This document shows positions 1-32,900 of a stretch of DNA of 37,864 nt, one piece after another. The DNA lies in the IMG/VR virus record IMGVR_UViG_3300012919_000018, positions 1 through 37,864 of that record, one strand, 5' to 3'. The stretch is from a virus. Taxonomy: Duplodnaviria > Caudoviricetes. Within the stretch, counting starts at the first letter, position 1, and each line of letters starts with the position of its first letter. The translations under genes were made by a program, and so were the position numbers. The notes below the pieces were generated by a model that saw only the letters and a program-made list of their open reading frames with translations, made no database searches and was not told the origin of the DNA.

Positions 1-1176
1 AAACAACCTGATCTAAAAATAATCCAAGCCACGAATAACGCTGAGTTAGCCGTGAGATTTGGTCGTAAGGCAAAGTCACTAATCGACACGGAAGATTATC
101 AAAAAATATTTAACACAAGATTACGTGAGGACTCACAAGCGGCAGGTAAATGGGAAACAGCACAAGGCGGCGAATATTATGCAGCCGGTGTTGGTGGATC
201 AATTACAGGTCGTGGTGCTGATCTATTAATCATTGATGACCCACACTCGGAGCAAGACGCGCTGAACGTGGCTTCTTATGATAGAGTTTACGAATGGTAT
301 ACGTCAGGTCCTAGACAACGTTTGCAACCTGGGGGTAGAATAATTGTTGTGATGACTCGATGGTCAGTAGCTGACTTGACAGGTAAATTAATGAAAGCCC
401 AAAAAGAAGCAAAAGCAGACCAGTGGGAAGTGATCGAGTTCCCTGCCATATTACCATCAGGCAAACCAGTATGGCCAGGATACTGGAAACTAGAAGAGTT
501 AGAAGCGGTAAAAGCATCCGTCAATATACAAAAATGGAATGCACAGTACCAGCAAAACCCAACAGCCGCTGAGGGATCAATCATTAAAAGAGAATGGTGG
601 GTGCCGTGGGAGAAAGACGAGTTGCCGCCACTAATGCACGTGATCCAATCTTATGACACCGCGTTTATGAAAAAGGAAACAGCTGACTACAGCGCCATAA
701 CTACATGGGGAGTGTTCCAACCAAACGAGGATACGGGACCACGGCTTATATTATTAGACCTTGTAAAGGATAGATACGAGTTTCCAGAACTGCGTAGAAT
801 AGCAAAAGAACAGTATGATTATTGGAAACCAGAGACTGTAATTGTAGAGGCAAAAGCGTCAGGACTGCCTTTGACCTATGAAATGCGTAAACTGGGTATA
901 CCGGTTATTAACTTTACACCAAGCAAGGGAAATGATAAACATACTAGAGTGAACTCTGTTGCTCCGTTATTTGAGTCAGGTATGATTTATTATCCGGATC
1001 GCAAGTTCTCTGAAGAGATGATTGAGGAGTGCGCTGCATTTCCACTGGGGGAACACGATGACCTAGTTGATAGCATGACTCAAGCAGTAATGAGATTTAG
1101 GCAAGGTGGCTTTATAGAACATCCAGAAGATTACGAGGATGAAGAGTTACCACAACAGCAAAGGACGTACTACTAA
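1..1176 (+). CDS. terL: Terminase large subunit (5'-partial; frame open from base 1)
   Basis: Frame 1 is open from base 1 (KQPDLKIIQATNNAELAVRFGRK...). Contains the ITGRGADLLIIDDP Walker B region, VVMTRW coupling motif, and RNase H-like nuclease acidic motifs QSYDTA, DYSAITTW, HDDLVDS. Confidence 0.95.
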   Translation, partial: KQPDLKIIQATNNAELAVRFGRKAKSLIDTEDYQKIFNTRLREDSQAAGKWETAQGGEYYAAGVGGSITGRGADLLIIDDPHSEQDALNVASYDRVYEWYTSGPRQRLQPGGRIIVVMTRWSVADLTGKLMKAQKEAKADQWEVIEFPAILPSGKPVWPGYWKLEELEAVKASVNIQKWNAQYQQNPTAAEGSIIKREWWVPWEKDELPPLMHVIQSYDTAFMKKETADYSAITTWGVFQPNEDTGPRLILLDLVKDRYEFPELRRIAKEQYDYWKPETVIVEAKASGLPLTYEMRKLGIPVINFTPSKGNDKHTRVNSVAPLFESGMIYYPDRKFSEEMIEECAAFPLGEHDDLVDSMTQAVMRFRQGGFIEHPEDYEDEELPQQQRTYY

Positions 1177-3326
1177 TGGCAATTAGAGAAAAAGGCTTAA
1201 GAGGTATATTAGAAAAGTTAGGTCTTGATAAACTTTTTAAAAAAGCTGAAGAAGTTGAAGTTCAAAAAACAGATGTGGGTGAAGTTTCGGGTAAGTTTGA
1301 TGAAACAACAAAACCTGGCGAGTTTAAAAAACAAGGTGACATCATAGGGCCAGAAGGCGAAACACAAACTAAAGTTTACAGTTACAGACCAGAATCTTTT
1401 TCTGAGATGCAAAAGAGAACGGGCGTAGGAGAGTTCTCTGACGAAGCACTTAGCAGATCATTTATGGATAGTGTTGATGCAGATGTTATGTCATTAGATG
1501 AATACATAATGAAAGTCCGTGGCATAAGTTTAGACCAACTAGAAGCAGAAAGAGCTCTAAAAGCAAAAAAGGTTTCACCAGAACCAAAACAAATTGCAAC
1601 ACCAGAAGCTGATAAATTTATATCAGATGTACAAGCTGCAACAAACAGAACAGAAGAAGATATTAGAGAAACAATCGTTGATATTATGAACGAAGGTTAT
1701 GAAGCAGGTGATCCAAAGAGAACAATGTTTGATGATGATGAAATGATAAATGCATTTCTAGGTGTTAAGAAAGTAAACCAAGGAGACTTTGAAGAGTTTG
1801 TAGATACTTTTATGAAAAGATTGGTTGCAAGAGAGCCATCAGAATATACACCACCAGTTCTTAGAGATAAAAAATCATTTAAACTTAAAGCAGGAGAAAG
1901 AGTTTTTAAAGATGATGATTTCCAAAAATCATATGACATGGCTGATGAATATGGGTTTAGAGTTACAGACGACCCATCAGATATTATTCCTTACAGTCAA
2001 TTATCAGAAAAAGATATTAGACTAATTAAATTAGGTGTGCCTATGAATAGTAAAAAGTACAAGGCACAGATGAAAGGATTAGAAGAAGGTAAACTTCTAT
2101 CAGACCTAGAAGATGATCCTATTAAGAAAGCAAATGCAAAAGCTTTTGAAGATGCATCAGGTGCAACAGAAAGAACAAAAATAATTAAAGCAAACGAAGA
2201 CCTAAAAGAACAAGCAACAAAAGAGATTATGGAAGCTATTGAAGAAGGTAATTTTAGAAAAGCAGAAGCAATAGAAAACGCATTTAATGATGGCACATAC
2301 GTGCCTGGTGGAAAGAAAAGAACACTAAATGCAAAAGGTGGTCGTATTGGTTTTGCAGATGGTGACTTTGTTGCACCAGAAGACGTAATGACAACTAGAG
2401 GAGACAATGAAAGTAGAATAGCTGAGTACATGGCAAAGATAGAAACAGGTGAATTAGTTTACGATCCTGAAACAAAACAGTTTATACCTGCTCCAAAGAA
2501 AAGACGGAGACAAAATACTAGACCTGCCGACAATGAAGAATACATGTCTGACTTGATGTATAGAATGAAGATGAACGAGATGTATGGTAAAAAAGATGGT
2601 GGTCGTATTGGTTTTGCAGAAGGTGGTGGCGGACCAAAAATAAATAGACGTAATTTTTTACAACTTGCGGGCGCAGGACTTGCAAGTTTAATGTTTCCAT
2701 TTGGAAGAGCTGCTAAAGAAGCTGCACCAGTGGTTACTAAAGCAATTCAACCAGTCGCAGGAATGCCTGATTGGTTTCCATTACTTGTAAATAGAATTAG
2801 AACCAAAGGTAAAGTTACAAGCGAACCAGATTATGCAGCGTTTACTTCTGGTGGTGATACTGAAAAAATTTACAAACTTGATGACTATACTTTGTACGAA
2901 GATATGGCTACAGGTAAAGTTACAGTAAGTGGTAGAGGTAACGACTACCAACAAGTTTCTATGGAATACACTCCAGGTGAAAATAAAGTTATGACTACGA
3001 AAAATCCTATTACAGGAAAAATGGAAAGAGGAGTCATGACAGAAAAACCAACTTTTGAAGCAGGAGAATACGCAAAAGGTGACCCATATGATTATGAAAA
3101 TTTTGGCGACTTTGATGATCTAAAAGGTGACGTTCGTAACTGGGAAGATTTTGCAACGGGTGGTAGAAAAACAGACGAGAAAACAGTAAAACAAGCTGTA
3201 GAAGAGTTTATAAATAAACAAACAGACCCAAATATTATAGATGACATGGCAAAAGGTGGTAGAGTAGGCATGGCACAAGGTGGCATAGCATCTAAATTTA
3301 AGGAGAGAGTACACTATGGTAATTGA
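1176..3326 (+). CDS. 716-aa multi-module protein between terminase and portal; three GGR[IV]G..GG-type motifs and an internal Tat-like signal peptide; putative ejected polyprotein
   Basis: Long ORF coupled to terL by a TAATG overlap. Motifs AKGGRIGFADG, DGGRIGFAEGG, AKGGRVGMAQGG, and NRRNFLQLAGAGLASLMFP after the second motif. Confidence 0.75.
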   Translation: MAIREKGLRGILEKLGLDKLFKKAEEVEVQKTDVGEVSGKFDETTKPGEFKKQGDIIGPEGETQTKVYSYRPESFSEMQKRTGVGEFSDEALSRSFMDSVDADVMSLDEYIMKVRGISLDQLEAERALKAKKVSPEPKQIATPEADKFISDVQAATNRTEEDIRETIVDIMNEGYEAGDPKRTMFDDDEMINAFLGVKKVNQGDFEEFVDTFMKRLVAREPSEYTPPVLRDKKSFKLKAGERVFKDDDFQKSYDMADEYGFRVTDDPSDIIPYSQLSEKDIRLIKLGVPMNSKKYKAQMKGLEEGKLLSDLEDDPIKKANAKAFEDASGATERTKIIKANEDLKEQATKEIMEAIEEGNFRKAEAIENAFNDGTYVPGGKKRTLNAKGGRIGFADGDFVAPEDVMTTRGDNESRIAEYMAKIETGELVYDPETKQFIPAPKKRRRQNTRPADNEEYMSDLMYRMKMNEMYGKKDGGRIGFAEGGGGPKINRRNFLQLAGAGLASLMFPFGRAAKEAAPVVTKAIQPVAGMPDWFPLLVNRIRTKGKVTSEPDYAAFTSGGDTEKIYKLDDYTLYEDMATGKVTVSGRGNDYQQVSMEYTPGENKVMTTKNPITGKMERGVMTEKPTFEAGEYAKGDPYDYENFGDFDDLKGDVRNWEDFATGGRKTDEKTVKQAVEEFINKQTDPNIIDDMAKGGRVGMAQGGIASKFKERVHYGN
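2337..2620 (+). repeat. 23-nt exact direct repeat ggtggtcgtattggttttgcaga (2337-2359 and 2598-2620) encoding GGRIGFA
   Basis: Direct sequence comparison; the match extends to 28 nt with one mismatch. Confidence 0.9.
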
Positions 3327-5808
3327 TAAAAAAACATTGAATGTTCCAAGACCAAGACGTTCATTCCAAATAAAAGGGCCACAAGCAGGCGCTGCCGCTG
3401 CAACAGAAATGTTGCAACAACAAATGAATGTCAAACCACCGATAGAAGTTACACAAGATGAAGATGGTGGTGCAACTATTGATTTTGATCCGCAAGCATT
3501 AAACGCAACATTAGGACCACAAGGTCATAACGAAAACTTAGTTAATCTAATGAACGAGGATGACACTGAGCAACTAGCTAGTGATTTAATAGAAGTTTAC
3601 GAAGACTGCAAAGCGTCAAGACAAGACTGGGAAAATACATATACAAAAGGTATGGACCTTCTTGGTTTTAAATATGAAGACAGAGCAGAACCATTTAGAG
3701 GTGCAAGCGGTGCAACACACCCTGTACTTGCAGAGGCAGTTACACAGTTTCAAGCACTAGCATACAAAGAATTATTACCAGCTGATGGACCTGTAAGAGC
3801 ACAGATTGTTGGTGCTGTTACACCTGAAAGAGAACAACAAGCTGATCGTGTAAAAGATTTTATGAACTATCAAATTATGGTTGAGATGAAAGAGTACGAG
3901 CCAGAGTTTGATCAAATGTTATTTAACTTACCATTATCAGGTTCTACATTTAAAAAAGTTTATTACGACCAATTACTAGGTCGTTGTGTTTCTAAGTTTG
4001 TACCAGCAGAAGATTTGTATGTGCCATACACTGCAACAAGTTTAGATGATACAGAAACAATTATTCACAAAATAAAAATGAAAGGCAACGATTTACTAAA
4101 ACAACAGTTGTCTGGTTTTTATGCTGACGTGCCTGTTGAAGAGGATGAAAATGTTGGTGAGGTCACAGAGAAAAAAGACGAGCTAGGTGGTATAGATCCA
4201 CACAGCGATGAAATTTACAATGTTCTAGAATTTCACACACACTTAGATTTACCTGGTTTTGAAGAGTTAGATGAGATGCAAGAACCAACAGGTTTAAAAG
4301 TTCCTTACATTGTTTCTATTGATGAAGGATCAGGAAAAGTTTTAGCTGTCAGAAGAAATTATGACATGCAAGATCAAAACAAAACAAGAAAAGAATACTT
4401 TGTTCACTTTAAGTTCCTACCAGGACTTGGCTTCTATGGGTTCGGCCTAATCCACATGATCGGCGGATTGTCTAGAACTGCAACTGCAGCACTTAGACAA
4501 TTACTAGACGCCGGCACCTTGTCAAATTTACCGGCCGGATTTAAAATGCGAGGCATTAGAGTACGTGATGAAGCTCAACCGTTGCAGCCGGGTGAGTTCA
4601 GAGATGTCGATGCTCCTGGTGGAAACTTAAGCGACGCATTCATGCCTTTACCGTTCAAAGGCCCTAACGCAACGTTGCTACAGCTTATGGATTTTGTAGT
4701 TCAATCTGGGCAACGTTTTGCAAGCATAGCAGATATGCAGGTCGGTGACGGAAATCAAAGTGCAGCTGTTGGTACAACAGTTGCATTACTAGAACGAGGT
4801 TCTAGAGTTATGTCTGCAATCCACAAAAGATTATATGCATCAATGAAACAAGAATTTATGTTATTGGCTGATGCTTTTGCAACATATCTACCACCGGTTT
4901 ATCCGTACGATATTATTGGTGCACAAAAACAAATTAAACAAGCAGACTTTAACGAAAGAATAGATATTATCCCTGTAGCAGATCCAAATATCTTTTCTCA
5001 AACACAAAGAATTACAGTTGCACAAAGTGCACTACAATTAGCAATGTCAAATCCAAAAATGCACAACTTATACGAAGCGTATAGAGGTATGTATGAGGCA
5101 CTTGGTATAAAAAACGTAAATGTTATACTACCACCACCGCAAAAACCTGCTGCGATGGACCCTGCTATGGAAAATATTATGGCAATGTCAGGAAAACCAT
5201 TCAAAGCATTCCCAGGACAAGACCATCAGGCGCACATGGATGCACATTTGACATTTATGGGTACGTTTATGGCTAGAAATAACCCTCAAGCACTTGCATT
5301 ATTGTCAAAAAACTGCATGGAACACATTGCATTGATGGCTCAAGAGCAAGTTCAGCTAGAATTTCAAGAAGAAATTGCACAAATTCAGCAATTAACAGCA
5401 AATATCCAACAAATGGGCGGTATGAACCCGAAAAATCCACAAGTTATGCAGGTTCAACAGCAAATTAAGCAAGAAACTGACAAAATTGAAGCTAGAAAAG
5501 CCCAATTAATTGCTCAATTAACCAATGATTACCTAGAAGAAGAGAAAAAAGTGTTAAATCAGCTTGATAATGACCCATTATTGAAATTAAAGGCAGACGA
5601 AGTGCAGTTAAGAGCTCAAGATCAGCAAAGAAAAGAGAAAGAAAGCGAAGAAAAAGCCAATATGGAGACTCTAAAATTGATCAGAGGAGGTCAAGAATTT
5701 GACGCTAAATTACAGCAAGATGACGAACATGCTAAGCTTAGGGCGTCTGTTTCACTTGCAAAAGACGGCATAAAACAGATGAAAGCAACAGTAATAGAGG
5801 ATAAATAA
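3316..5808 (+). CDS. Portal protein (P22-like, long C-terminal helical barrel)
   Basis: 830 aa downstream of terL. Motifs PFRGASGATHPVLAEAVTQFQA, GSTFKKVYYD, FLPGLGFYGFGL, Q/E-rich coiled-coil C-terminus. RBS aggaga upstream. Confidence 0.9.
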   Translation: MVIDKKTLNVPRPRRSFQIKGPQAGAAAATEMLQQQMNVKPPIEVTQDEDGGATIDFDPQALNATLGPQGHNENLVNLMNEDDTEQLASDLIEVYEDCKASRQDWENTYTKGMDLLGFKYEDRAEPFRGASGATHPVLAEAVTQFQALAYKELLPADGPVRAQIVGAVTPEREQQADRVKDFMNYQIMVEMKEYEPEFDQMLFNLPLSGSTFKKVYYDQLLGRCVSKFVPAEDLYVPYTATSLDDTETIIHKIKMKGNDLLKQQLSGFYADVPVEEDENVGEVTEKKDELGGIDPHSDEIYNVLEFHTHLDLPGFEELDEMQEPTGLKVPYIVSIDEGSGKVLAVRRNYDMQDQNKTRKEYFVHFKFLPGLGFYGFGLIHMIGGLSRTATAALRQLLDAGTLSNLPAGFKMRGIRVRDEAQPLQPGEFRDVDAPGGNLSDAFMPLPFKGPNATLLQLMDFVVQSGQRFASIADMQVGDGNQSAAVGTTVALLERGSRVMSAIHKRLYASMKQEFMLLADAFATYLPPVYPYDIIGAQKQIKQADFNERIDIIPVADPNIFSQTQRITVAQSALQLAMSNPKMHNLYEAYRGMYEALGIKNVNVILPPPQKPAAMDPAMENIMAMSGKPFKAFPGQDHQAHMDAHLTFMGTFMARNNPQALALLSKNCMEHIALMAQEQVQLEFQEEIAQIQQLTANIQQMGGMNPKNPQVMQVQQQIKQETDKIEARKAQLIAQLTNDYLEEEKKVLNQLDNDPLLKLKADEVQLRAQDQQRKEKESEEKANMETLKLIRGGQEFDAKLQQDDEHAKLRASVSLAKDGIKQMKATVIEDK

Positions 5809-6818
5809 TGCCTATTGATGCTGATGTAAAGGGAGGATACGGAACCGCAGGAAATAGACCTAACGATCCTAGGGATAGAAATAAAGACGACACCAAGGGC
5901 GGAGAAGGTAACAGCGCTTTACATGATTTTTCTTATCAACCTACTCAAACTAATTATCTAGGCACTCAAGATTTCGAACAAGATTTTTCAAACACAAGTC
6001 AAGATTACGATCCTAGTAAACATACCAATAATATTATTGAGGCCATGTTTAGCCCTGATCTTACGTTTAAATACAACCCACAAATGGACTATGTAGACAG
6101 GGTTTATGGTGGTCTTAGACCTGATCAGAAACAAAGGATATTAGATCAAGTAGACCCTAAAGGAATTTTTGGTGGTAATTTTGGTTCTTTTGTAGATGCA
6201 AACTACGGTAATTTATATGATGCAGGTAATATTACAGGTCAAAATATTGCAGATGCTTTTACTAGTGTAGCTGATTATTTTACCGCCATGCCAAATAAGA
6301 TAGCCAACTACAATCCAACAATGCCAACACAAGAAGGTATTACAAGTTTAACACAGAACATAGGCAAAACCATTTTTGCAAACCCTTTTACAACTCTGAT
6401 GGGAATGAATCCTGCAGGACTTCCTCTAGGACTGTTCGCAGCTTTAACTATGAATGAAGGTCCATTTAAGTTAAATGAAGATGGCACTTACAATCCTGAA
6501 CTTGGAGATATTGCAAACTTAACAAACGCACCTTCTAATTACATAAACGCTATTGCAAACTATCAAGGTCAATTAACACCAGAACAAATGTCACAAGTGG
6601 CAAGTGGTATGGCAGCAAAAGCAGAAGAACAAGCGAATACTAAAACTGGAGTAGAACTTACAGCAGAAGAAAAAGCAGCGTTACAAGCTCAAATGAATGC
6701 GGCAAGTATACAAAGTTACAAAGACACACTTGATCAACAACAGTTAAGAATATACGAAAGACTTGCGGGACAAGGTTATAATGATGATTACATCAGAGCA
6801 TACTTAGGTTTACTATGA
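5808..6818 (+). CDS. Hypothetical N/Q-rich protein, possibly an internal virion protein
   Basis: 336-aa ORF coupled to the portal by TAATG; one weakly hydrophobic segment (PFTTLMGMNPAGLPLGLFAALT). Confidence 0.6.
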   Translation: MPIDADVKGGYGTAGNRPNDPRDRNKDDTKGGEGNSALHDFSYQPTQTNYLGTQDFEQDFSNTSQDYDPSKHTNNIIEAMFSPDLTFKYNPQMDYVDRVYGGLRPDQKQRILDQVDPKGIFGGNFGSFVDANYGNLYDAGNITGQNIADAFTSVADYFTAMPNKIANYNPTMPTQEGITSLTQNIGKTIFANPFTTLMGMNPAGLPLGLFAALTMNEGPFKLNEDGTYNPELGDIANLTNAPSNYINAIANYQGQLTPEQMSQVASGMAAKAEEQANTKTGVELTAEEKAALQAQMNAASIQSYKDTLDQQQLRIYERLAGQGYNDDYIRAYLGLL

Positions 6819-12013: not shown

Positions 12014-12760
12014 ATGGCAACATCAGGTACAACTACTTTTGAAAGTGGTTTCTTAATTGACGATGTCATACAAGAATCTTACGATCGAGTAGGAGTTAAA
12101 TCAGTAAGCGGTTATCAATTAAAATCAGCAAGACGTTCTTTGAATATAATGTTCCAAGAATGGGCCAATAGAGGTCTGCATTATTGGGAAATAGATAAGA
12201 CGAATATTGACCTAGTAGAAGGACAAGCAGAGTATAAGTTTTTTAGAAGCACTGATGACGGCACAAGTGCAGTTACAACACCGACAAATGGTATATATGG
12301 TGTTGATGATATATTAGAAGCTGCTTTGAGAAATAACAGAACACAAACGACTCAAAGTGATTCTGCTCTTACGAAGATAAATAGATCTACATACTCCGGT
12401 TTATCTAACAAATTATCAAAAGGATCTCCCTCACAATATTACGTGCAAAGATTTATTGATCATACAATGTTAACTGTTTACCCAACACCTGACGCAACCG
12501 CTGCTACAAAAGATCTTGCAATTTATTTTGTAAAAAGAATTCAAGACGCAGGTGGATATAGTAATACAGCTGACGTTCCTTACAGGTTTGTGCCTTGCAT
12601 GACAGCTGGTCTTTCTTATTATTTAAGTCAAAAAGTAAAACCAGAATTAGTACAGCAAATGAAATTATTATATGAAGATGAATTACAAAGAGCGTTAGCA
12701 GAAGACGGCTCATCTTCTAGTACGTTCATAACTCCACAGGCATATTACCCAAATGTCTAA
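12014..12760 (+). CDS. Head-tail adaptor / tail tubular protein A-like
   Basis: SARRSLNIMFQEWANRG helix, PSQYYVQR...LTVYPTPD beta insert and helical C-terminus, typical of podovirus adaptor rings. Confidence 0.7.
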   Translation: MATSGTTTFESGFLIDDVIQESYDRVGVKSVSGYQLKSARRSLNIMFQEWANRGLHYWEIDKTNIDLVEGQAEYKFFRSTDDGTSAVTTPTNGIYGVDDILEAALRNNRTQTTQSDSALTKINRSTYSGLSNKLSKGSPSQYYVQRFIDHTMLTVYPTPDATAATKDLAIYFVKRIQDAGGYSNTADVPYRFVPCMTAGLSYYLSQKVKPELVQQMKLLYEDELQRALAEDGSSSSTFITPQAYYPNV

Positions 12761-13778
12761 TTTTGCAACAGGTAGAAAATCAAAAGCCATTTCAGATAGA
12801 AGTGGTATGGAATTTCCATACACAGAAATGCGTAAAGAATGGAATGGAGCTTTTGTACATGAGTCTGAGTTTGAACCAAAACACCCACAACTAGAACCAA
12901 AAGTACAAAAAGGAGATGCACAAGGTTTGCAAAATGCAAGACCAGATAGAGTAGAACCTCCTGTTGCTCACATGTTAGGATTGAATGCTTTTTCTTCTGG
13001 TGTCAGAGATTCCATAGTTGTAAATGTAAATGATCCTGGACATGGATTTGTAAACAACGACGTTGTAAGATTTAGAAATACACAAGGTAAACTTCCTCCT
13101 TATCCAGAAGTTTCACATTTAGAAGGACATGATTTAGATGTAGCTCAAGGACATGTAGTTACAAAAATAGACAATGATAATTTTTCTTTTAGTCCTAATG
13201 ATACCTTAGATAAATTTTTGACAGACAATTGCACTCCTGGAACAACGACAGTCTATGTAGATTTAGATGGAACTCTTACAGAATATTATCAAGCAGTAGC
13301 AACTTTTGCTACATCACAAGGTTTGTTAGACTCTGGCGGTGATTGGTATGGACTAACTCCAGTGATTGAAGCAGCCGCAGTAAATGCAGCACCTACAACA
13401 TATTTTCAAAACCTTGCTAAAAGAGCAGAAGCAGACGCTTTGATAGATTTAGTTATAGCTAAAAACGGATCTTGGGAGGTTTTATCTTCTCAAGTAGTTG
13501 GAACAAATCAGGTTGCACAAAAAGACGCTTGGGTTACAGCAAACTTTGGCACTCCTGGATCAGGTGTTGGTAGAGCTCCTGCAGCCACTAACTACGCAAC
13601 TAATTTTAATAAAGGTCCTTACGGTGGAGCTAATAAAATATTAATTGACGACAGAACTACCTATATTAATCAATTTGAAGCTGCTGGAGGTAAAGGCTTT
13701 AAATACTATGAAAGTGGTGGTATATTGAGATTTGGAGGAGGCAGGTCATCAGTTGGACCTGTTACAGCATTAGCATGA
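12753..13778 (+). CDS. Tail-region structural protein with an inserted HAD-superfamily phosphatase (5'-nucleotidase-like) domain
   Basis: N-terminal AISDRSG..EWNG..EPKHPQLEP, then beta domain DPGHGF..DVVRF, then HAD motifs I (VYVDLDGT), II (VLSS), III (NK), IV (ILIDDR). Confidence 0.75.
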   Translation: MSNFATGRKSKAISDRSGMEFPYTEMRKEWNGAFVHESEFEPKHPQLEPKVQKGDAQGLQNARPDRVEPPVAHMLGLNAFSSGVRDSIVVNVNDPGHGFVNNDVVRFRNTQGKLPPYPEVSHLEGHDLDVAQGHVVTKIDNDNFSFSPNDTLDKFLTDNCTPGTTTVYVDLDGTLTEYYQAVATFATSQGLLDSGGDWYGLTPVIEAAAVNAAPTTYFQNLAKRAEADALIDLVIAKNGSWEVLSSQVVGTNQVAQKDAWVTANFGTPGSGVGRAPAATNYATNFNKGPYGGANKILIDDRTTYINQFEAAGGKGFKYYESGGILRFGGGRSSVGPVTALA

Positions 13779-23026: not shown

Positions 23027-23265
23027 AGAAAATACAAGAAGCAAAAATACTGGGTACACAGATGGTTGAAGGCAAAGAAGTGCCAGTTATACAGCCAGAG
23101 GTGTATCAACGAATTTATTGTAAAAATTGTGATAATGAGGTAGATTCGGAAGAACAGGCAACCGGCACCTGCAGCAACTGTGGCCAACCCTGGTCAGTTC
23201 ATAAAGCCAAAGATATACAACTAAAAGTAGTCCAAGTACCAATTGGGTCTGGAACCGGAGAATAA
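23023..23265 (+). CDS. Small zinc-ribbon protein
   Basis: CKNC-x13-CSNC; ATGA-coupled. Confidence 0.7.
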   Translation: MKKIQEAKILGTQMVEGKEVPVIQPEVYQRIYCKNCDNEVDSEEQATGTCSNCGQPWSVHKAKDIQLKVVQVPIGSGTGE

Positions 23266-23266
23266 T

Positions 23267-24559
23267 TTGAAGAATTTTTTTAATAAAATAGGAGACATGT
23301 TTGTACCAAAGGAGATTGCTCCTTATCTAGGTATGATCGCTCCAATGGTTGCACCGCAACTTGGAATTGTTGGAAGTCTGGCTCTTAGTCAAATGGGCTC
23401 TTTCAAACAACACGGTGGTAAGTTTGATCCTTTCTCAGCCGTAGCAACAGGCATAGCATTAGCATCACCACAAGCAAGAGCCATAAGAGCAGCGGGTAGA
23501 TCAGGTGGTCAAGGTACAATCGGACAACAATTGTCTTCTGGAATAAGTGAAAGTTTAGGAAAAATGAGTTCAGATCCAAAAAGTTTTACATCTACTTTAG
23601 CTAGAGGTTTTGATCCAACTCAAGCTATGAGTGCTAGCACTGCTGGTGGTCATGGCAGTTTTTATGAAAATCCTTTTTTAGCTGACCTTGATAAATTTGG
23701 TGAATACACAGCTCCAGATGGAACTGTGATGGAGATTGATTCTGTTGCATCTGGTAACGCACGTCTTCAAGATCTTGACGAAAAAAGTTTAAAACGAGTT
23801 TTAGGAGATACATACGACGCTAAATACGGTGTAAAAGCAACAGAGGCAGAACTTAGAGAAATATATGGTGATGACGTTTATGAGAAATTTACAGGGGAAG
23901 AGTTAGCAGCAGCTCAAGATATTAATAGAACGGGCGGAAGTCTTTCTGAACTAAAAGGTGTTGAAAAGTTTGCAGCTGGCGCAGCGGAAATGGGATCTAA
24001 TTTAGCTGGAGGCATATTCCCTGGTTTTGGTGAGTATGATCCTTTAACAGGACGAATGATACCTGGCACTTTTGATTTTGGTAAAGCATTACAAACTGTA
24101 GGTGTCGCTGCAACTGTTGGATCATTAAAAGCCATAGGTGAAGAACTTAAAAAACAGAAACAGCTAGACGAACAAAAACAAAGAGAAATATGGACAACTT
24201 ATTTTAAAAGCTACGAACGAGCTGCCGGCAAACCTTACAGCGAGTCTAATTATCCAGATGCAAATATTATGGAAAAATTCAATAGATTTATGCTGGCAAC
24301 TGGTGGTAGAGTCGGCTATAATATGGGAGGCGGCATCATGGCGGCCTCTGGTGTACCTCAAGGTATGCAAGTCGACGGACGTAACGGCACATTCATTCCT
24401 ATGGGTGTAAAAGAGAAAGCTGACGACGTACCTGCCATGCTATCAAAGAATGAATTTGTAATGACAGCAGATGCTGTAAAGGCAGCAGGGGGCGGGGATG
24501 CAAATGTAGGAGCACAAAGAATGTACGATCTTATGCATAATTTAGAGGCACAAGTTTAA
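23267..24559 (+). CDS. Putative internal/ejection protein with a GG motif and C-terminal DDVPAMLSKNEFV domain
   Basis: Probable TTG start at 23267 after ggag (ORF track starts at 23243). Hydrophobic N-terminal helices; ATGGRVGYNMGG followed by ADDVPAMLSKNEFVMTADAV. Confidence 0.7.
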   Translation: MKNFFNKIGDMFVPKEIAPYLGMIAPMVAPQLGIVGSLALSQMGSFKQHGGKFDPFSAVATGIALASPQARAIRAAGRSGGQGTIGQQLSSGISESLGKMSSDPKSFTSTLARGFDPTQAMSASTAGGHGSFYENPFLADLDKFGEYTAPDGTVMEIDSVASGNARLQDLDEKSLKRVLGDTYDAKYGVKATEAELREIYGDDVYEKFTGEELAAAQDINRTGGSLSELKGVEKFAAGAAEMGSNLAGGIFPGFGEYDPLTGRMIPGTFDFGKALQTVGVAATVGSLKAIGEELKKQKQLDEQKQREIWTTYFKSYERAAGKPYSESNYPDANIMEKFNRFMLATGGRVGYNMGGGIMAASGVPQGMQVDGRNGTFIPMGVKEKADDVPAMLSKNEFVMTADAVKAAGGGDANVGAQRMYDLMHNLEAQV

Positions 24560-25782
24560 TGAGCACGCAAACAACTATACAACAACAATTACCACCGGGT
24601 TACGTCACCGCCATTGGAGAATTATTTACTGACTATTTTACAGGTGCGCCTGATCAACAAACAGGTGCTCAAACTGCATTTGTTCAAGACAGTCCTTTTT
24701 ATGCTGATCCTAATCAAATGTTTGGTGGATCATTTGATCCAACAACAGGACAGTTTACAGGTATAACAGGAGCCAATGTTCCTGCATCAGATTTCTTTGT
24801 TGCAGCTCAAGATCCTTTACAAATACAAGCACAAAATATCGCAACAGGTCAGCAAGCAGCACCGACAACTGGACTTGGTCAATATCAAGATTATGTAACA
24901 CAAGCTGATCAAATGAATACATTGGCGCAAGGTATCGCTACTGGACCAGTTGCTGGAACACAAGCCTTGGCTGATGCAGCAGGGACCGTCGGATTAGCAG
25001 CAGGTGCAGCAAGTGCCGGACAAAACGCAGCCACACCTTTCTTACAACAAGCTCAACAGTTTGCAGGACCACAAGGGTTCCAACAATTTATGTCGCCGTA
25101 TCAACAACAAGTTGTTGATGCAACACTTGCACAGTACGATCAGGATGCAGCTGAAGCTGCTGCACAGTTTGGAGCGTCTGCAGGAAGCGCATATGGTGGT
25201 GGACGATTTGGAGTAGCAGAAGGACAAATGGCTGCAGATACAGCAAACCAAAGAGCATTACTACAAGCTCAATTATTAAATCAAGGATTTATGCAATCAC
25301 AAGGATTAGCAAACCAAGCAGTACAAAACCAAATTAATATGGGTCAAACTGCATTAGGTAACGCATTACAAAATGTTGGATTGTTTGGACAAACGGCAGG
25401 TATGCAAGGTGCTCTATCGGGCCAACAACAAGGACTGCAAGCTGCACAACTTGCAAACTTAACGGGTGTTGGTAATCAAGCATTAAATATTGGTGGCTTT
25501 GGACAAACAGGTATTGGAAACTTACTCAATACATTTACAACCATGGGTCAACAAAATCAGCTTTACAATCAAGCTATACAAGATCAGTTGGGAGCTCTTG
25601 CTTCAGGTATACAACTTGCACCTTCACAAACTATGGGTAACCTTGGTCAGTTCCTATCAGCTGCTTATGGTACGCCTTCATCTACAACTTATCAGCAATC
25701 ACCAGCTCCTAGCACATTACAAACATTACTTGGTGGAGGTATTGGTCTTGCAGGTATTATAGGAGCTTTGACAGAAGACTAA
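24559..25782 (+). CDS. Putative DNA ejection/pilot protein (Gln/Gly/Ala-rich)
   Basis: FMSPYQQQVVDATL, GSAYGGGRFGV, hydrophobic C-terminus LLGGGIGLAGIIG; TAATG-coupled. Confidence 0.7.
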   Translation: MSTQTTIQQQLPPGYVTAIGELFTDYFTGAPDQQTGAQTAFVQDSPFYADPNQMFGGSFDPTTGQFTGITGANVPASDFFVAAQDPLQIQAQNIATGQQAAPTTGLGQYQDYVTQADQMNTLAQGIATGPVAGTQALADAAGTVGLAAGAASAGQNAATPFLQQAQQFAGPQGFQQFMSPYQQQVVDATLAQYDQDAAEAAAQFGASAGSAYGGGRFGVAEGQMAADTANQRALLQAQLLNQGFMQSQGLANQAVQNQINMGQTALGNALQNVGLFGQTAGMQGALSGQQQGLQAAQLANLTGVGNQALNIGGFGQTGIGNLLNTFTTMGQQNQLYNQAIQDQLGALASGIQLAPSQTMGNLGQFLSAAYGTPSSTTYQQSPAPSTLQTLLGGGIGLAGIIGALTED

Positions 25783-26957
25783 TGGCTAGGATATTAAATA
25801 GACCAATGTTTAGACGAGGTGGTAGTACAGGTGGTATTACAGCTAACCTAAAAAAACCTAGAATGGGTTTTGAACCGGGTGGAAAAGTTCCTGATTTTCA
25901 AAATATCTTAGCGCAATATATGCAAGCTCCTGAACAACCAAAAGGTTTAACATCAAGTGATTATCTTAGACTAGCTGCAGCAGGTGCAGAGATTATGGGA
26001 GCACAGCCAACATCAGATGGTAGTGGTTTCTTAGCCGCACTATCTTCAGCAGGACCAGCTCTATCAGGGGCAGCTACGGATATAGCAAGTAACATTTCTG
26101 CACGAAAAGAAAATTTTAGAGATAGAAAAGCTGCTTATGATGCAGCCATGGGACAAGCAGCTGTAGATCAAGCATCAGCTCAGTTTACTAGAGACGCAGA
26201 GGTAGAGGATAGAGATGCGGGTTTCCAACAAGATAAAGATATATTACAATTACAATTTGATTACGACAAACAATTACAAAGTATAGAAGCACAAAATGCT
26301 ATTGATTTATTAAAAGAAGAGAAAAAATTAAGTCCATACGATTTTGAAAAAGAGTATGTAGATAAAGAAGGACAGAAATTAATTGAAGAAGCGATAGCAG
26401 CTATAGAAGCTGATGATAGAGCAACATATGAACAGAAGAAAAGTCAGTTTCTAAATGGTTTATATGGTGAAAGCACAAGAGCAAATACAGAAGAAAAAGC
26501 AAACCTATTGGCCGATGCTGATTTCTTAAAAGCAGTTAGACTAGAAGTGGATGCGATCATGGAACCAGGTGGTTCAGCATCAATAGCTGGCAACAAGTAT
26601 TCTGGTAAAACAAGAGAAGAAGTTAGAGCAATGGTTCTAAACGAAACGTTTGGTAGAGTCATCAGTGAAATTTATTTCCCAGAGTTTAAAGCAGAAGGTG
26701 GTCGTGTTGGAATGCAAGAAGGTGGTATGGCAGCAAATCCTAACATGCGAGAAGGTGCATCATCAGCAGACATACAATTAACTTTTACAGAACTAAGAAA
26801 AAGATTACCACCAGAGGTAAGTGACGGTGTCATAAATTTAATTATGAATAGCGAACAAGCCATGATTGATTTTGCACAACTTATGACGCCAGAAGACATA
26901 GCAGTATTTAACGATAAATATAACGTAGATTTACAATACCCAACACAGGTAGCGTAA
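25782..26957 (+). CDS. Putative internal virion/ejection protein with GG motifs
   Basis: MARILNRPMFRRGG start, RMGFEPGG, coiled coil, FKAEGGRVGMQEGG before a C-terminal domain. Confidence 0.7.
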   Translation: MARILNRPMFRRGGSTGGITANLKKPRMGFEPGGKVPDFQNILAQYMQAPEQPKGLTSSDYLRLAAAGAEIMGAQPTSDGSGFLAALSSAGPALSGAATDIASNISARKENFRDRKAAYDAAMGQAAVDQASAQFTRDAEVEDRDAGFQQDKDILQLQFDYDKQLQSIEAQNAIDLLKEEKKLSPYDFEKEYVDKEGQKLIEEAIAAIEADDRATYEQKKSQFLNGLYGESTRANTEEKANLLADADFLKAVRLEVDAIMEPGGSASIAGNKYSGKTREEVRAMVLNETFGRVISEIYFPEFKAEGGRVGMQEGGMAANPNMREGASSADIQLTFTELRKRLPPEVSDGVINLIMNSEQAMIDFAQLMTPEDIAVFNDKYNVDLQYPTQVA

Positions 26958-26958
26958 C

Positions 26959-29900
26959 ATGAGTATCTTCGATAAGATTAAAGAGCCCACAGGGATTGAG
27001 CTTGTTGATACTATGCTTGATCCTTACTTAAGAGGAGAGGGAGTACTTGCGGATACAGTTAGAGGTTTTTATTCTGGCGAAGAAAGATTAAAGAATATAC
27101 AAAACTTTAATACTACAGAAAAACTGTTAGATAAATACACAAAGAAAGAAGAACAAATAGATAGGATGTTAGCAAACGAGTATGGTCCTGCAACTTTTGA
27201 TAGTGCTGAATTTTTAAAAGGCGCAATGGAAGAACAAGGAGTAACCAGTCCTTATGACGTAGATGTAGGATCTGAATATGATAGGTATGTTAGACAAGTA
27301 AAAGACACAAAAGGTTTAGTGTTAGCAGAACAACTAACAACTGATTCTAAATATGATGTGTTTGCTAAAGCCACAGCAATGGGTGTGGCTGATGCAGGAT
27401 TATTTATTGCATCAATGTTAGATGGGTATGGAGGTGATTTACAGTTTGAAAGAATGTCGAATGCTGTAAGAAATAATAAATACGTTGATTTAAAATATGC
27501 CATAAACAGAGAAAATTTAGCTAGTCTTTTAGGTAAAACTGTTGAGGAAATAACAACAAAAGATTTAGAAGACGCAGAAGCACAGATTTACGCACTACAT
27601 AACATGTCACATTTAGGGTATGGTCTTGGAACTATCGGTTCTTTTCCTGCAGAAGATGTTTTGTTTAGAGGTGCGTTTGCAGCTTTTACGCAAGGTGGTA
27701 AACTTGCTTTTAATAATCCAAAAACTACAGCTGCTGTTGCAGGAGCTGCAGTTACTTCGCAAACTAGCGATGCTGAAGCTAGACAGAAAGTAATTAAATA
27801 CGCAAACGAGCTAGGACAAGGAGATGATGTTGCAAAACAATCAGAAGTAGATCAAATGGTTGCAGATTATCTAGCAGGCAAAACAAAAACAGATAAAACT
27901 GACACTACACCAACAAAACCAGTAGTTGAAGGCGGAACTACCACAATAAAAACCAGAGCTCCGGGTGGAGGTCCTTATAAAAAAACAGAAGTAAGCACAG
28001 AGTTGTTAGATAAAGCTGCTGAGATGTATAGAGGTGAAGGTGTTAGATGGTCTGATCTAAGTTCTGGTGAAAGAACTCACTTATTTGACAGTAGAGGAAT
28101 TGGACCAAAAATAGATATAGAACAAGGAACAATAAATCCTCTATGGAAACCAGTTACTAAAAAGCCTGTTTATGGTGGAACTACAGATGCTGACATTGCA
28201 TACACGAAAGAATTAGATAAAGCCGCTGCTTACGTAAGTAATGGTGAAAGAACATACGGTGAATTTTTAACAGAAGCACAACGAACAGAACGAGGTTTAA
28301 AAAGAGGAAATACAGAAACTCAAGCATATCTTAGAAATCATTGGATAAGAAACAACAAATTTATTGGTCCAACATCTGCAGGAAAACAATCTAATATAAA
28401 AGCTGTTAAAAATGCTCTAGAAGAAAAATTAAAACGCCGTGCAGAAGCTTTTTACGAACAACACGATAGATACCCTACACAAGCAGAATTACATTTTAAT
28501 ACTTTTGGTTATGCTGTTAGAGAAGCTGCAGATTTAAATTTAGTAGATCACAGTAAACTTATAAGGAAGTTGGAAGACGATGGTATAATAATATTATCAA
28601 AAGAAGATGAAGTTAGGGTTGTTAAAAAAGTTGAAGAAGAAGATAATTTTCAAAGAGGCATTCCTGCGTTTGAAAATCAATATAATACAGTAGCAGAAGT
28701 TATCTCAAGAAAAACAGGTATACCTAAAGATAGAGTAACAGATTTTTTTCATAGAGGTCATTCATTAAGAGAAGATTATTTTAATAGAGTGCCCGTAGAA
28801 TTACAGGAACAGGTACTAAGACCAAACCAACTTTTAACATCTGGTCAAAATGCAAGACACGTACACTATGAAAATACCATCATAGATATGTATAATTTAA
28901 AAGAAGAGGCTATGGGTTACTTAAATCAAATTTTAAGAGCCGAACGAACTTTAGATAAAACACAACTAGCAGCACTTGATGATCTTGTAGAAACTTTTGG
29001 CACTGGAGTTAAAGAAAATGCAAACAACCTGCAAAAGGCTCAGTCTGTTTTAAAAGGTATAGAAAAAAATTTAAACCAAGTAGATAATCAAATGTTAGAA
29101 GAAGGCTTATACACACCTATGTATGATCCTGTTACTGGTAAAGCAAGAACATTTGGTCAACCTGCAGGTGGCGGATTTGATCCACTTGATCCTAAAAGAC
29201 CAAGAAGTGATCAAACAAGAGTGCCACCAAATATAGCTTCTCAAAAAGCAACCTCAGCAGATGTAATGAGTGCAGCTAGAAGACTAGAAGAAAAAATGAA
29301 AAGTGTAGATCCAGAAACAGGTTTGCCTACTGCTACAGATCAGTACGGCCGAGCATTACGTAAAGGGGGTAAAGTAAGAGCTTTTGGTAATGAGGGTGGT
29401 GATGAAGAAGATTTAAAAAGAAGACCCGTCTTTGAAAAATACTTAGACTTTAAACAAGATAAAGCTGGAACTCAATTAGGCCTTGAGTCTATGCCTGAGT
29501 CACAACAAAAACAAATGGCTTTCTTTTTAGCAGATCCTATAGAAGGACAACAAAGAATAGAAAGAGAAAAAGTTGCGGACGCTAGTGTTAGGTATAAAGT
29601 TATACCTAAAGACGATAGCATATCTTCTGTGCAACAAAAAATAGCAGAAAAAATGATAGATGCTAAACCTACTAAATTTCCTTTAACTAGTTTTCCAAAA
29701 CTACTAACAGAAAACCCTTTAACAAAAAGTATGGATAGGCAAATGAAAACACCTTTCCTAATACTAGCTGCAGCTGCAAATGATATTATAAATAAGATGG
29801 GTGGCGATGAAAAAGAATTTAACGAAAGATTTCCTAGACTAACTTCTTATTTAACTTCTGGTTATCAACCTACTCCTGGCACGAGCCAAGAAGCAGCTTA

Positions 29901-32900
29901 TATTGATGGCATAGATGAAATAAACAGGGCGCTAGAAACAGGCGTCAGGAATCTTGGATTTAATACCATGGACTTAGTTTTAGGTGGCATAGATCTAACT
30001 GGTTTTGGTGATGGTAGATTATCTGAACGACTAAGAGAAAATTACGAAAAGACAGCAAAGAATGATCCTGAAACTTTTATGGGTGACTTGCTTGCACTTC
30101 TTACTGAGTTTGGTGTGCCAGGTGGTTTAGTAACAAAAATAGTTACTAGAATGCAAAAAGCATTAAGACTAAAAGGTTTTAACACTATGACTCGTTACGT
30201 AGATGACGATGTTGTAGGTGCTGCAAGACTTGCTATGAACACAAGTAACATAGCAAAAAGAATGGGAACAGGTGCAGTAATATTTGGAGCGGCTGATTTT
30301 GTTGGTGGTGGTCCATACAGTTCACTAAAAAGAATGTTTCCAGAAGACGCCACACTATTGCCGGGCAAACCAATAGACACTACAGATTTATCAGGTGTAG
30401 AACTTGCTGTAGCAAACTTTAAAAACAGAGTTAGATTTGGGGCCGATGGAGCGTTGATTGGGGGATTATTCCCTCTTGTCGGCCCACCAGCTTGGGCCTT
30501 AACTAAAGGCACACTTGCATTGCCATTTAAAACATTGCCTGGAATTAACAGGTCTGTTTTTGGTGGCGCATTGCAATTAGCAGGAGTGCCATTAAAAATA
30601 GCAGCAGATTCTTTAGCAGGTAAAATACCTTACACTAATAAAACAATACCACTTGTTGGAGAAGGCATAAGTTATTTAGGTAAAAAAGGTGCAACAGCTG
30701 CACAAGCTACAGCTGCTTTTATAGGTAAACAAGTTTTTACTAGAGCTGCACTTGGTCTCTATGATGCAGCCTATGCTAGGTCAGGAATATATTCAGGCAT
30801 GCGGCCAAACACTACTATGTTTACAAAAAACTTACCTAAGTTTGAAGATTGGAGAAGATTTTCTGTAAACAGCAGAGATCCTTTGCACCAGTATCTTGCA
30901 AAAATTGATAATAAATTAGCTTTGTTTAGAGACATAGGTAAACTAGGCAAAGATGCTTTTGCAACAAAGACACAAAGCGATCTATACATACGAGCAAAAT
31001 CTAGAGCCGTAGAAAAATATTTAATAGATGTTGAAAGAATAGCATACAAGTTGGCAAAAGCTTTTGAGGAACGACATCAAAAGTATGGTGAGTTTGAAAC
31101 TATACAGAAAAAATATTTAGATGATGTATTAGATTTCTTAGAAGGTAAAATAAGAGTTGATCAACTGCCTAAACAATTGCAGGTGCCAGCTAATGATTTA
31201 AGAAATTATACAAACTCATTAAAGAAAGAGTTTGGAGAATTATTACCTACAACTGATCCCATAAACTATTTATTACAAGCAGATATAAATGCTGTAATGC
31301 GTAGATCTTTTGCTGCATTTACGAATAACTCATACCAACCAACAAAAGAGGCTGTAAGAAATGCTAAAGAGTTTATAAAAAATTTAATTAAAGATAATAA
31401 CAGTTTAAAAATGGAAGCAGAGCTGGCGTTTCCAGATAAATCTATAGCAGAAGCAATAGACGAATTTGCATCATTAAAAGTTGCTGACATTATGCATACA
31501 GCTAGATACGAAATGTCTGATCCATTTAAAGCACTAGAAAATATTGCTTTTAGAAAACTTGGATTAGATGACATATCTCTTGTTACTGGAGATGAACTAC
31601 CTAAAGCAATAAGAGCATTATTGGGTGAAGAAAAAAATCTTAGATCTTCTTTACTACAAACAACAGGTAATATTATTGCAAGCACCTCACAGAAGAAAGC
31701 ATTAGATCAAATTGCTCAAATGGGTCTGACTAACGGATGGTTGTTTAGATCTGCCGATGAAGCATTAGGTAAGGGCATACTAAATGCAGCACCTTTAACA
31801 GATGTAAAAGGATCTGGTTTTTTACTTAATGATGCAATTGGTTTGTATGGCACTCCAGAAATTATAAAACAACTTAGTGGTTACAGTTTATTTGATGGCT
31901 TCTTAAAAAGCACAATATATCAAAATATACTAGCAGCAAAAGCTATGGTGCAAGGAGGTAAGACTCTTTACTCACCAGCTACACAAATGCGTAACGTAGG
32001 ATCAGCCGCACTATTTGCTCTTAATGTAGGTCACATTGGTGGTAGCGCAAGTGTACCACAAGCTTTTAAAATAGTTATGGATGACATATTTGGTCCTGGA
32101 CGAAACGTAGACAAGAAAACACTAAATAAATTTATTGAAAGAAAAATTGAATTAGGTGTTATTGACGAGAACGTTGTTGCGCAAGAACTAACAGCAATAT
32201 TAAATGATTTAAAAGGTGCAACAAAAGAAACCGGTGAACCTGTAATTAGTAGTTTTAATCAACTAATACAAAGAGTCGGTAACACACAGCTTAGCCAATA
32301 CGTGCAAAGGTTGTATGCAGGTGGTGATAACTTATGGAAACTCTATGGTCACGAGTTTTATATCTCCGAACTTAAACAATTTACTAAGTCTATAGATGAC
32401 GTAAAAAGATATTTTGATGACATAGTAGGTAGAGAGTTTGTAGAGATCAGCCCAAAAACTGGTGGCAAAAAGACTGTAATGGAAGGTATCGAAGAAATAG
32501 CTGCACATTTAGTACGAGATACTTACCCTACATACAGTAGAGTGCCACCTGCAATACAAGCAATTAGAAAACTACCTATAGGTAACTTTATATCTTTCCC
32601 TGCAGAGATGTTAAGAACCACAGCTACAACACTATCTACGTCACTAAAACACATTGCATCAGGTAATCCAGGTTTACAAGCTATGGGATACAGATCTTTG
32701 TTTGGTCAATTTAGTACACTATATGGGGTAAACGAAGGAGTAAAAGCTTTAGGACATACCTTTACTGATGTATCTCCAGAGGCTATGAGAGCTTACCAAG
32801 ACGGACTAGGTCCTAGATTTATGGAAAACCATCTAATGGTGCCACTAACAAATAAAGATCCACAAACGGGTGAGTTTAAAGCGTTTGATTTATCTTCTTA

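Follow-up and report, generated by a model that had tools for sequence, protein, structure and literature searches.

The window analysed here is a 37,864-nucleotide (nt) stretch of virus DNA, positions 1 to 37,864 of the IMG/VR record IMGVR_UViG_3300012919_000018. Its open reading frame (ORF) at 1176-3326 encodes a protein of 716 amino acids (aa). Inside this protein, behind a repeated glycine-glycine (GG) motif, lies a peptide that, judged by its sequence, has a real and conserved consensus of the twin-arginine translocation (Tat) type. Unlike known Tat signals, it is phage-encoded and stands behind a repeated motif. We propose, as a possibility a little short of even, that this conserved peptide heads a mobile module of ~210 aa that is packed into the virion, cut free at the GG motif, bound by TatBC and exported as an anchored folded domain.

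Three copies of GGR[IV]G start within the protein, at aa 388, 475 and 694 (nt 2337, 2598 and 3255). A first-pass annotation made from the DNA letters had reported an internal twin-arginine pair behind a GG motif, and the pair is real: N-R-R-N-F-L occupies aa 490-495, close after motif 2 in a protein with three GGR[IV]G[FM]A motifs. Counted from motif 2, RRNFL begins (aa 491, nt 2646) 16 aa past the first Gly and 7 aa past the last. The uncharged run that follows the arginines is 18 aa long and satisfies a TatFind-like rule of our own; Tat h-regions have ~13 or more uncharged residues. RRNFL is also the sole match to [RK]RxF[LIM] among the 35 plus-strand ORFs examined. Because a lone match to this pattern turns up in 3.9% of 20,000 shuffles of the 716-aa protein, the case rests on conservation.

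Do homologues keep the peptide behind a GG motif? A query that includes the arginines (aa 470-716) found 222 homologues. Among the 120 listed, to which our counts refer, RRxF[LIM] follows the motif in 112, and the five inspected of the remaining eight have RRxVL or RRxLL. To avoid bias, profile A1 was made from the downstream domain only (aa 523-688), which holds neither RR nor motif. It gathered 418 clusters at 50% identity. From the best 150 of the 418 we dropped 18 (17 with fewer than 36 aa upstream or a start inside the domain, one apparently unrelated), and 132 representatives were kept. The peptide is retained: 128 of the 132 carry [RK]R-x-[FLVTAM]-[LIMVF], three have RR with other residues and one has neither, and a motif precedes RR by no more than 30 aa in 109.

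The manner in which the peptide varies is equally informative. The 128 comprise 104 with RR and 24 with KR, with no RK and no KK; Phe stands at +2 in 109, Leu at +3 in 99 and Lys at +4 in 72, giving the family logo [GSTNA]-R/K-R-x-F-L-K. Lys is allowed at the first position only, and the second Arg is unchanged in 128 of 128. In alignment A2, where 74 of 75 sequences have it, this Arg is roughly as conserved as the domain core. The published Tat consensus is S-R-R-x-F-L-K (PMC5539426, partial text). KK blocks Tat export, thylakoid Tat tolerates KR and not RK, TtrB is a substrate that naturally carries KR, and 80% of Tat motifs contain Phe (PMC6708511, partial text). The distribution of RR, KR, RK and KK, together with the Phe, therefore matches the published pattern of Tat substitutions.

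In a minority of relatives the same module is a gene of its own that starts at the signal, a form the first-pass annotation had suggested looking for. Besides the 109 representatives already mentioned, 14 have RR in their first 20 aa (including a probable fragment that begins at the motif), five have an internal RR without motif and four are off-pattern. The 120 contig domain hits, in which refetched contigs are counted more than once, divide into 96 fused behind a motif, 16 stand-alone, four at a contig edge and four cut at the 5' end. All 16 stand-alone hits have an in-frame stop 3-29 codons before RR, and stand-alone genes start 2-13 aa before it; in one (L050) the gene overlaps the stop of the preceding gene and is followed by the portal gene. 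Among 100 hits with a classified locus, the portal gene comes immediately after the module in 96. In 97 measured fused representatives the distance from the motif's aromatic residue to RR is 7-16 aa, in agreement with the stand-alone N-termini. At the level of sequence, lying behind the motif is equivalent to lying at an N-terminus. Because RR is conserved behind the motif and stand-alone genes start at the signal, a Tat-like function is likely and the motif is marked as a module boundary.

Fusion and fission recur, since a quickly built tree calls for 13 changes of the stand-alone label, at least six of them forced by well-supported branches; some rows of this tree are possibly gene-call fragments. 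The fused form is unlikely to be an assembly artefact, because a single contig from run X1, possibly the window's source, covers ORF 1176-3326 with two differences and many independent homologues share the fusion. In run X2 a contig joins motif 1 straight onto the RR module. RNA runs gave small shares only, and X18 gave no contig across the RR region of the window gene. A scan of IMG/VR with a DNA pattern for motif plus RRxF found at least 119 loci, 118 of them in frame and 106 of these with the same domain. The other 12 in-frame loci are three truncated, five divergent versions, two chance matches and two with the same peptide on an apparently unrelated passenger. These last two, L177 and L226 (from position 801), place motif and RR peptide ahead of a passenger of ~150 aa. 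The module is widespread, occurring in 394 IMG/VR stretches. By tblastn it had no match among GenBank phages and plasmids, where the version from phage HTVC027P matches only itself.

The motif itself, [FYL]-A-x-G-G-R-[VI]-G-[FLY]-x-x-G, is a tandem octapeptide. It occurs five times in the 35 plus-strand ORFs examined, where 300 shuffles give a mean of 0.013; the pattern was written after the motif had been seen. Three copies are in ORF 1176-3326, one is in a 438-aa ORF and one in a 391-aa ORF; none was found in the capsid, portal, tail or replication ORFs examined in the window. To judge from these places, the motif is confined there to the pre-portal gene and the presumed ejection-protein cluster. 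The 438-aa ORF has a weak tape-measure match to phrog_5448 (E 1.7e-5), on a short conserved C-terminal domain that also occurs in HTVC027P gp82 and in phage 023Pt_psg01. In the same presumed cluster, the 2349-aa ORF at 26959-34008 holds a looser copy. A loose pattern, which also matches some glycine-rich tail proteins, finds related motifs in four cultured or assembled relatives (HTVC027P, HTVC023P, 023Pt_psg01 and DSL-LC04), both in comparable genes and in small basic proteins. Small Lys-rich post-portal proteins with the same motif type (L026:22466-23660, L028:23012-24022, L029:22312-22917) may be internal DNA-binding proteins.

The motif is a signal at the protein level, because its codons vary synonymously; a DNA-level or Shine-Dalgarno role is ruled out on the same ground. 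Among the 120 homologues it occurs in 291 copies, 119 of which are followed by RR. Motif-to-motif spacings are 55, 86-87, 114 or 116 aa, or none, and cassettes are gained and lost at these places. The protein thus reads as a series of cassettes between motifs. Some copy is present in 128 of the 132 representatives. Because stand-alone forms keep a C-terminal motif, the motif must have a job beyond unmasking RR.

What does the signal head? AlphaFold2, run with 85 sequences, gave a mean pLDDT (predicted local distance difference test score) of 81.9 and a pTM (predicted template modelling score) of 0.70, with block pLDDT of 88-98 over aa 526-665; a single-sequence fold was unusable (pLDDT 38). 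In the model the signal forms a short helix, followed by a linker of low confidence and then by a confident domain of helix, beta-meander and helix. Like the passengers of Tat substrates, the domain is predicted to be folded; it has no Cys. Foldseek found no match in the PDB at E 1e-3, and PDB sequence searches gave nothing useful. In BFVD the fold search matched nothing but two virus proteins, both uncharacterised (247 and 950 aa); the best VIA-align result (Z 6.2 over 72 residues, root-mean-square deviation 3.3) is a generic beta-meander. Only hypothetical viral clusters were found in the ESM Atlas, one with PF10518 on 20% of its members. A missing fold match does not establish a new fold.

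The window looks, by its genes, like part of an HTVC023P/HTVC027P-type pelagiphage with a podophage-like genome, and a host can be suggested from these relatives. It encodes TerL, portal, GroES, capsid, adaptor, tail and helicase proteins at 38% GC, and CheckV puts the record at 62% completeness. Its portal protein is 63% identical to that of 023Pt_psg01, 58% to that of Pelagibacter phage HTVC027P and 53% to that of HTVC023P. The HTVC023P-type group is reported to be lytic and the most abundant known marine phage group (bioRxiv 10.1101/2019.12.14.876532, partial text). HTVC027P has a cultured host, HTCC1062, which has and expresses tatA, tatB and tatC (SAR11_0975-0977; PMC12753301 Tables S3 and S4, partial text). 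Its gp42 ends in a motif, S-K-R-K-F-I-K and a divergent domain, a KR version that a hidden Markov model (HMM) of the full module detects (E 3.5e-7). In the GTDB genomes searched with the passenger domain there was no relative, and portal relatives in GTDB are short contigs inside metagenome-assembled genomes (MAGs) of unrelated taxa, giving no reliable host. Contigs of the same phage family (L131-L136) have been assigned, probably in error, to MAGs labelled Rickettsiales, Nitrosopumilaceae, Polaribacter and Roseovarius; L131 carries an HTVC027P-like RR module.

How might the protein work? The long N-terminal part of the fused form would keep the signal hidden in the producing cell until the protein is processed. 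As a packaging tag the motif would, quite likely, recruit the protein to the procapsid. That the motif would also be cut, freeing the signal, we regard as evenly poised. After ejection into the cytoplasm the peptide would probably engage TatC, whose RR site faces the cytoplasm (PMC13186574, partial text). Export of the domain, which would then stay anchored in the inner membrane, is slightly favoured over mere docking. The likeliest single purpose, itself doubtful, would be protection or remodelling of the newly infected cell's envelope, for instance to keep out a second phage. The first-pass annotation had suggested superinfection exclusion or a jammed TatBC, and either may apply. Speculative to a similar degree is a wider proposal, in which HTVC023P-type phages make virion polyproteins punctuated by one motif that first packages and is then cut, and in which the freed, interchangeable modules would include one with a cryptic Tat signal, the ready-made protein being injected and then exported by Tat, or jamming it, as infection begins.

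Several observations weigh against our proposal of a packaged, freed and exported module. The first-pass annotation had recognised a Tat consensus, and N-R-R-N-F-L and the uncharged run are present; the window peptide falls under the curated cut-offs, Tat models matching aa 488-505 at 14.9-16.9 against 22.7 (Pfam PF10518) and 14.8 against 16.7 (NCBIfam TIGR01409). The TatFind-like rule is passed by only 61 of 128 relatives. We compared the 128 phage peptides with 21 host-type signals, unverified and partly orthologous TIGR01409 matches in the genomes of three marine bacteria that belong to a single order. In the phage peptides the uncharged run is shorter (median 12.5 versus 19), the hydrophobic moment is higher (0.57 versus 0.38) and there is more Lys (5 versus 2). 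In the domain-only search HTVC027P gp42 was not detected, and the module HMM had no match in the fetched parts of HTVC023P, 023Pt_psg01, DSL-LC04 and CRP-901. Because it goes undetected in these parts of several cultured relatives, the module must be accessory. The window's presumed host is read from its relatives, and TatABC is known from HTCC1062, the host of one of them. The virion location is read from gene context only.

The cutting step has difficulties of its own. As a processing site, the role the first-pass annotation gave it, the motif holds up in so far as it marks a module boundary; cleavage does not follow. No protease candidate was found among the window ORFs scanned, in a record 62% complete, and RR lacks a motif directly before it in 7 of 132 representatives, with the nearest one 203-227 aa upstream in four long ones. 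The motif follows the domain in 89 of 101 stand-alone-like proteins. The signal need not be masked, to judge from the stand-alone forms, and once exposed it would compete with packaging. Nor does the signal end as a cleaved one would: the Ala-rich end noted in the annotation is not a conserved signal-peptidase site, and no A-x-A lies at RR+17..32 in the window, which is compatible with an uncleaved anchor. A-x-A sites occur in 14% of the 128 phage peptides and 29% of the 21 host-type signals, and the c-region of the phage peptides is more basic (+3 versus +1). Such differences speak for an uncleaved anchor or a docking peptide, not for a signal cleaved in the classical way.

For such reasons an uncut motif has to be considered. 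It would be a packaging tag and a recombination-friendly linker; Tat would read the signal internally, or the peptide would only dock on TatBC as a tether or block. This is unlikely in our judgement, although it accommodates the near-universal motif, the copies downstream of stand-alone-like domains, the seven representatives with no adjacent motif, the short, Lys-flanked h-region and the lack of a protease among the ORFs scanned. Internal Tat signals, moreover, function with a loop of ~8 aa or more (PMC5449189, partial text). Against it stand the 109 of 132 signals placed after the motif and the 7-16 aa that separate aromatic and RR, just as at stand-alone N-termini. In the motif-less cases the Phe is mostly replaced, and the known internal cases follow Sec-inserted helices, which are absent from the window protein by inspection.

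Could the module act late in the producing cell rather than be carried over? Tat export or TatBC binding would then anchor portal or procapsid assembly to the membrane, or time lysis or exclusion. HTVC027P gp41, gp42, portal and gp82 are late genes (PMC12753301, partial text), the gene is nearly always directly before the portal, and stand-alone forms have their signal exposed as soon as they are made. During infection with HTVC027P, host tatC is raised 2.2- to 4.2-fold at 6-15 h and tatB up to 2.4-fold late; with HTVC022P no rise of tatC is called (PMC12753301, including Table S4, SAR11_0976-0977; partial text). The neighbouring serS (2.3-fold) and secD (2.8-fold) rise too (same source, partial text); the tatC change is thus not specific, and we do not count it as support. 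Several cultured relatives without a detected module assemble normally, and the motif is common to the module and the presumed ejection proteins. We consider action in the producing cell improbable.

An amphipathic membrane-binding helix, in the style of ejection proteins or membrane-active peptides, is about equally improbable. The likeness to Tat signals would then be convergent. The high moment, abundant Lys and short h-region fit such a helix, as do the 67 of 128 relatives that fail the TatFind-like rule and the window's scores under curated cut-offs. In a plain amphipathic helix Arg and Lys should be freely interchangeable, and in the family they are not: the second Arg is invariant, Lys appears only at the first position, and Phe and Leu recur at +2 and +3.

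Least probable of all is an internal translation start just before RR, which would yield a short Tat substrate and make cleavage unneeded: an ATG two codons before RR in 40 of 87 distinct fused contexts also tells against our proposal, some ATG, GTG or TTG lies between motif and RR in 43, and many stand-alone genes begin at exactly that Met, whereas 44 contexts including the window have no canonical start, the -2 codon cannot plausibly initiate in 27, GGAG, AGGA or GAGG precedes only 2 of the 43, and a Met at -2 can be explained both as a remnant of gene fusion and by the hydrophobic residue that host signals have at -2. The annotation's observation that no ATG lies between motif and RR is confirmed in the window, where nt 2598-2645 also lack in-frame GTG and TTG and have ATT (I478) and ATA (I489); this ATA is the -2 codon, and upstream Gly codons could pair weakly with the anti-Shine-Dalgarno sequence. 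In-frame Met codons further upstream (2544, 2556, 2565, 2571 and 2580) have no GGAG or AGGA in the preceding 20 nt. As a general mechanism, starts at 2544-2580 are excluded: only 36 of the 109 fused representatives have a Met no more than 15 aa from RR, and the window's Met codons there lack a Shine-Dalgarno sequence. A scan of nt 2200-2700 found no sigma-70-like site. A terminator-like hairpin lies within the h-region codons at 2662-2688; one was found where 0.4 is expected, and it is probably chance.

To return to the proposal of a packaged and freed Tat-type module, how does the peptide compare with known systems? Tat signals and anchors (PF10518, TIGR01409; SufI, TtrB) share with it S/T-R-R-x-F-L-K, an invariant second Arg, KR variants, a moderately hydrophobic helix, a basic c-region and a folded passenger. 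PF10518 itself matches 34 of 85 family members at E up to 0.1, at best 3.3e-6. The phage peptide differs in being phage-encoded and usually ~200 to 990 aa inside a larger protein, behind a repeated motif, and in its shorter, more amphipathic h-region, with no conserved signal-peptidase site and no Cys or cofactor motif. We say that it works like a Tat signal and do not file it as a canonical member, because Tat signals lie near the N-terminus and the window's begins at aa 491; only the stand-alone homologues have the usual position. The internal Tat signals of actinobacterial Rieske proteins (PMC5449189, partial text) are alike in having the twin arginines far from the N-terminus. They follow Sec-inserted transmembrane helices and stay uncleaved, whereas the phage signal comes after a soluble region with a GG motif and also occurs in stand-alone form.

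Three phage systems offer partial parallels. Lambda gpH (gpH*, gpHC) sheds a piece of ~14 kDa from a glycine-rich region, by a catalyst and at a site still unmapped (PMC12617516, partial text). It has similar short motifs at aa 733 and 778 (L067:143-2704, gene H), the first 12.7 kDa from the C-terminus. The likeness thus extends to an aromatic-Ala-x-Gly-Gly motif, a glycine-rich region, an ejected virion protein and the distance from the C-terminus, and the same motif may mark the unmapped site. gpH is, in contrast, a siphophage tail protein with no Tat signal. By BLASTP the best E is 0.16, which is not significant and also counts against us; because homology is not significant, the likeness is a lead only. 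MuF proteins and toxins (SPP1 gp7; PMC5576092, partial text) are likewise variable cargo genes beside the portal, head-packaged in one studied case. The window gene differs in lying upstream of the portal rather than downstream, in its lytic, podophage-like family and in having a short motif in place of a packaging domain; the Pfam scan gave no PF04233 or PF06152 match, and with the upstream position this rules out a MuF identity. Podophage ejection proteins (T7 gp14-16, P22 gp7/16/20) are internal virion proteins acting at the envelope, as proposed here, and P22 gp20 may need cleavage by a host enzyme (PMC8954989, partial text). No homology to them was shown, our module is accessory and outside the ejection cluster, and the available part of that source describes no use of Tat.

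Double-glycine bacteriocin leaders are short N-terminal leaders ending in GG, the substrates of C39 peptidases, each with a dedicated peptidase-ABC transporter. The present motif is internal or C-terminal and repeated, and no C39 or ABC match was found among the window ORFs scanned; it is not such a leader.

We found no description of the motif, or of phage cargo with a Tat signal, in a literature search mostly outside subscription papers and pelagiphage supplements. Nor did that literature yield a phage protein that targets the host Tat translocase. The main text of PMC9599517 does not mention twin-arginine, signal peptide or protease. A screen of tatC-sensitive Klebsiella phage proteins for Tat signals found none (PMC13412088).

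Features of the window discussed in the text, with positions in nt
Feature	Position	Strand	Remarks
Motif-delimited cassette protein, 716 aa	1176..3326	+	between TerL and portal; no PHROG family; aa 470-716 has 222 homologues
N-terminal variable module, aa 1-384	1176..2327	+	no Pfam match; Atlas matches under 0.9, all hypothetical
Motif copy 1, aa 385-396, tandem octapeptide-type GG motif	2328..2363	+	
Optional cassette between motif copies 1 and 2, 87-aa spacing	2364..2588	+	replaced or missing in relatives
Motif copy 2, aa 472-484, putative processing or boundary site ahead of signal	2589..2627	+	motif directly before RR in 109/132; synonymous codon variation
Twin-arginine consensus N-R-R-N-F-L-Q, aa 490-496	2643..2663	+	R492 kept in 74/75 filled rows of alignment A2
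h-region-like uncharged run, 18 aa, aa 493-510	2652..2705	+	
Basic amphipathic c-region or linker, no conserved signal-peptidase site	2706..2750	+	low pLDDT
Predicted folded passenger, ~aa 526-675: helix, beta-meander, helices; starts GMPxWF; no Cys	2751..3200	+	AlphaFold2
Motif copy 3, aa 691-703, with a short, basic and conserved tail at the C-terminus; putative packaging tag	3246..3323	+	
Portal gene directly downstream	3316..5808	+	phrog_1216, E 1e-57
Motif in 438-aa ORF 23243-24559, presumed ejection-protein cluster	24296..24334	+	weak tape-measure PHROG match at aa 352-428
Motif in 391-aa ORF 25782-26957, presumed ejection-protein cluster	26691..26729	+	

Some neighbouring genes deserve mention. 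The pre-portal locus of relatives holds large, highly variable proteins (L026:17182-19860, L021:1175-4735, L022:2-2497, L050:1622-3784). Several of them have His-rich, HNH-like stretches by eye and weak helix-turn-helix matches, and resemble polymorphic cargo; Pfam gave no HNH match. After the portal, window ORF 5808-6818 encodes an acidic, Asn/Gln-rich protein of 336 aa without the tandem motif, and its L002 homologue starts with a full motif. At 12753-13778 a structural-module protein is joined to a 5'-3' deoxyribonucleotidase-like domain (aa 164-318; phrog_2643, E 1e-9).

Most virion genes of the abundant HTVC023P-type group are unannotated, and the repeated motif offers a handle on how podophage cargo is picked for packaging. 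It also supplies a candidate site for the cleavage of lambda gpH, still unmapped in the available part of PMC12617516. The cultured pair of HTVC027P and HTCC1062 makes our reading testable now.

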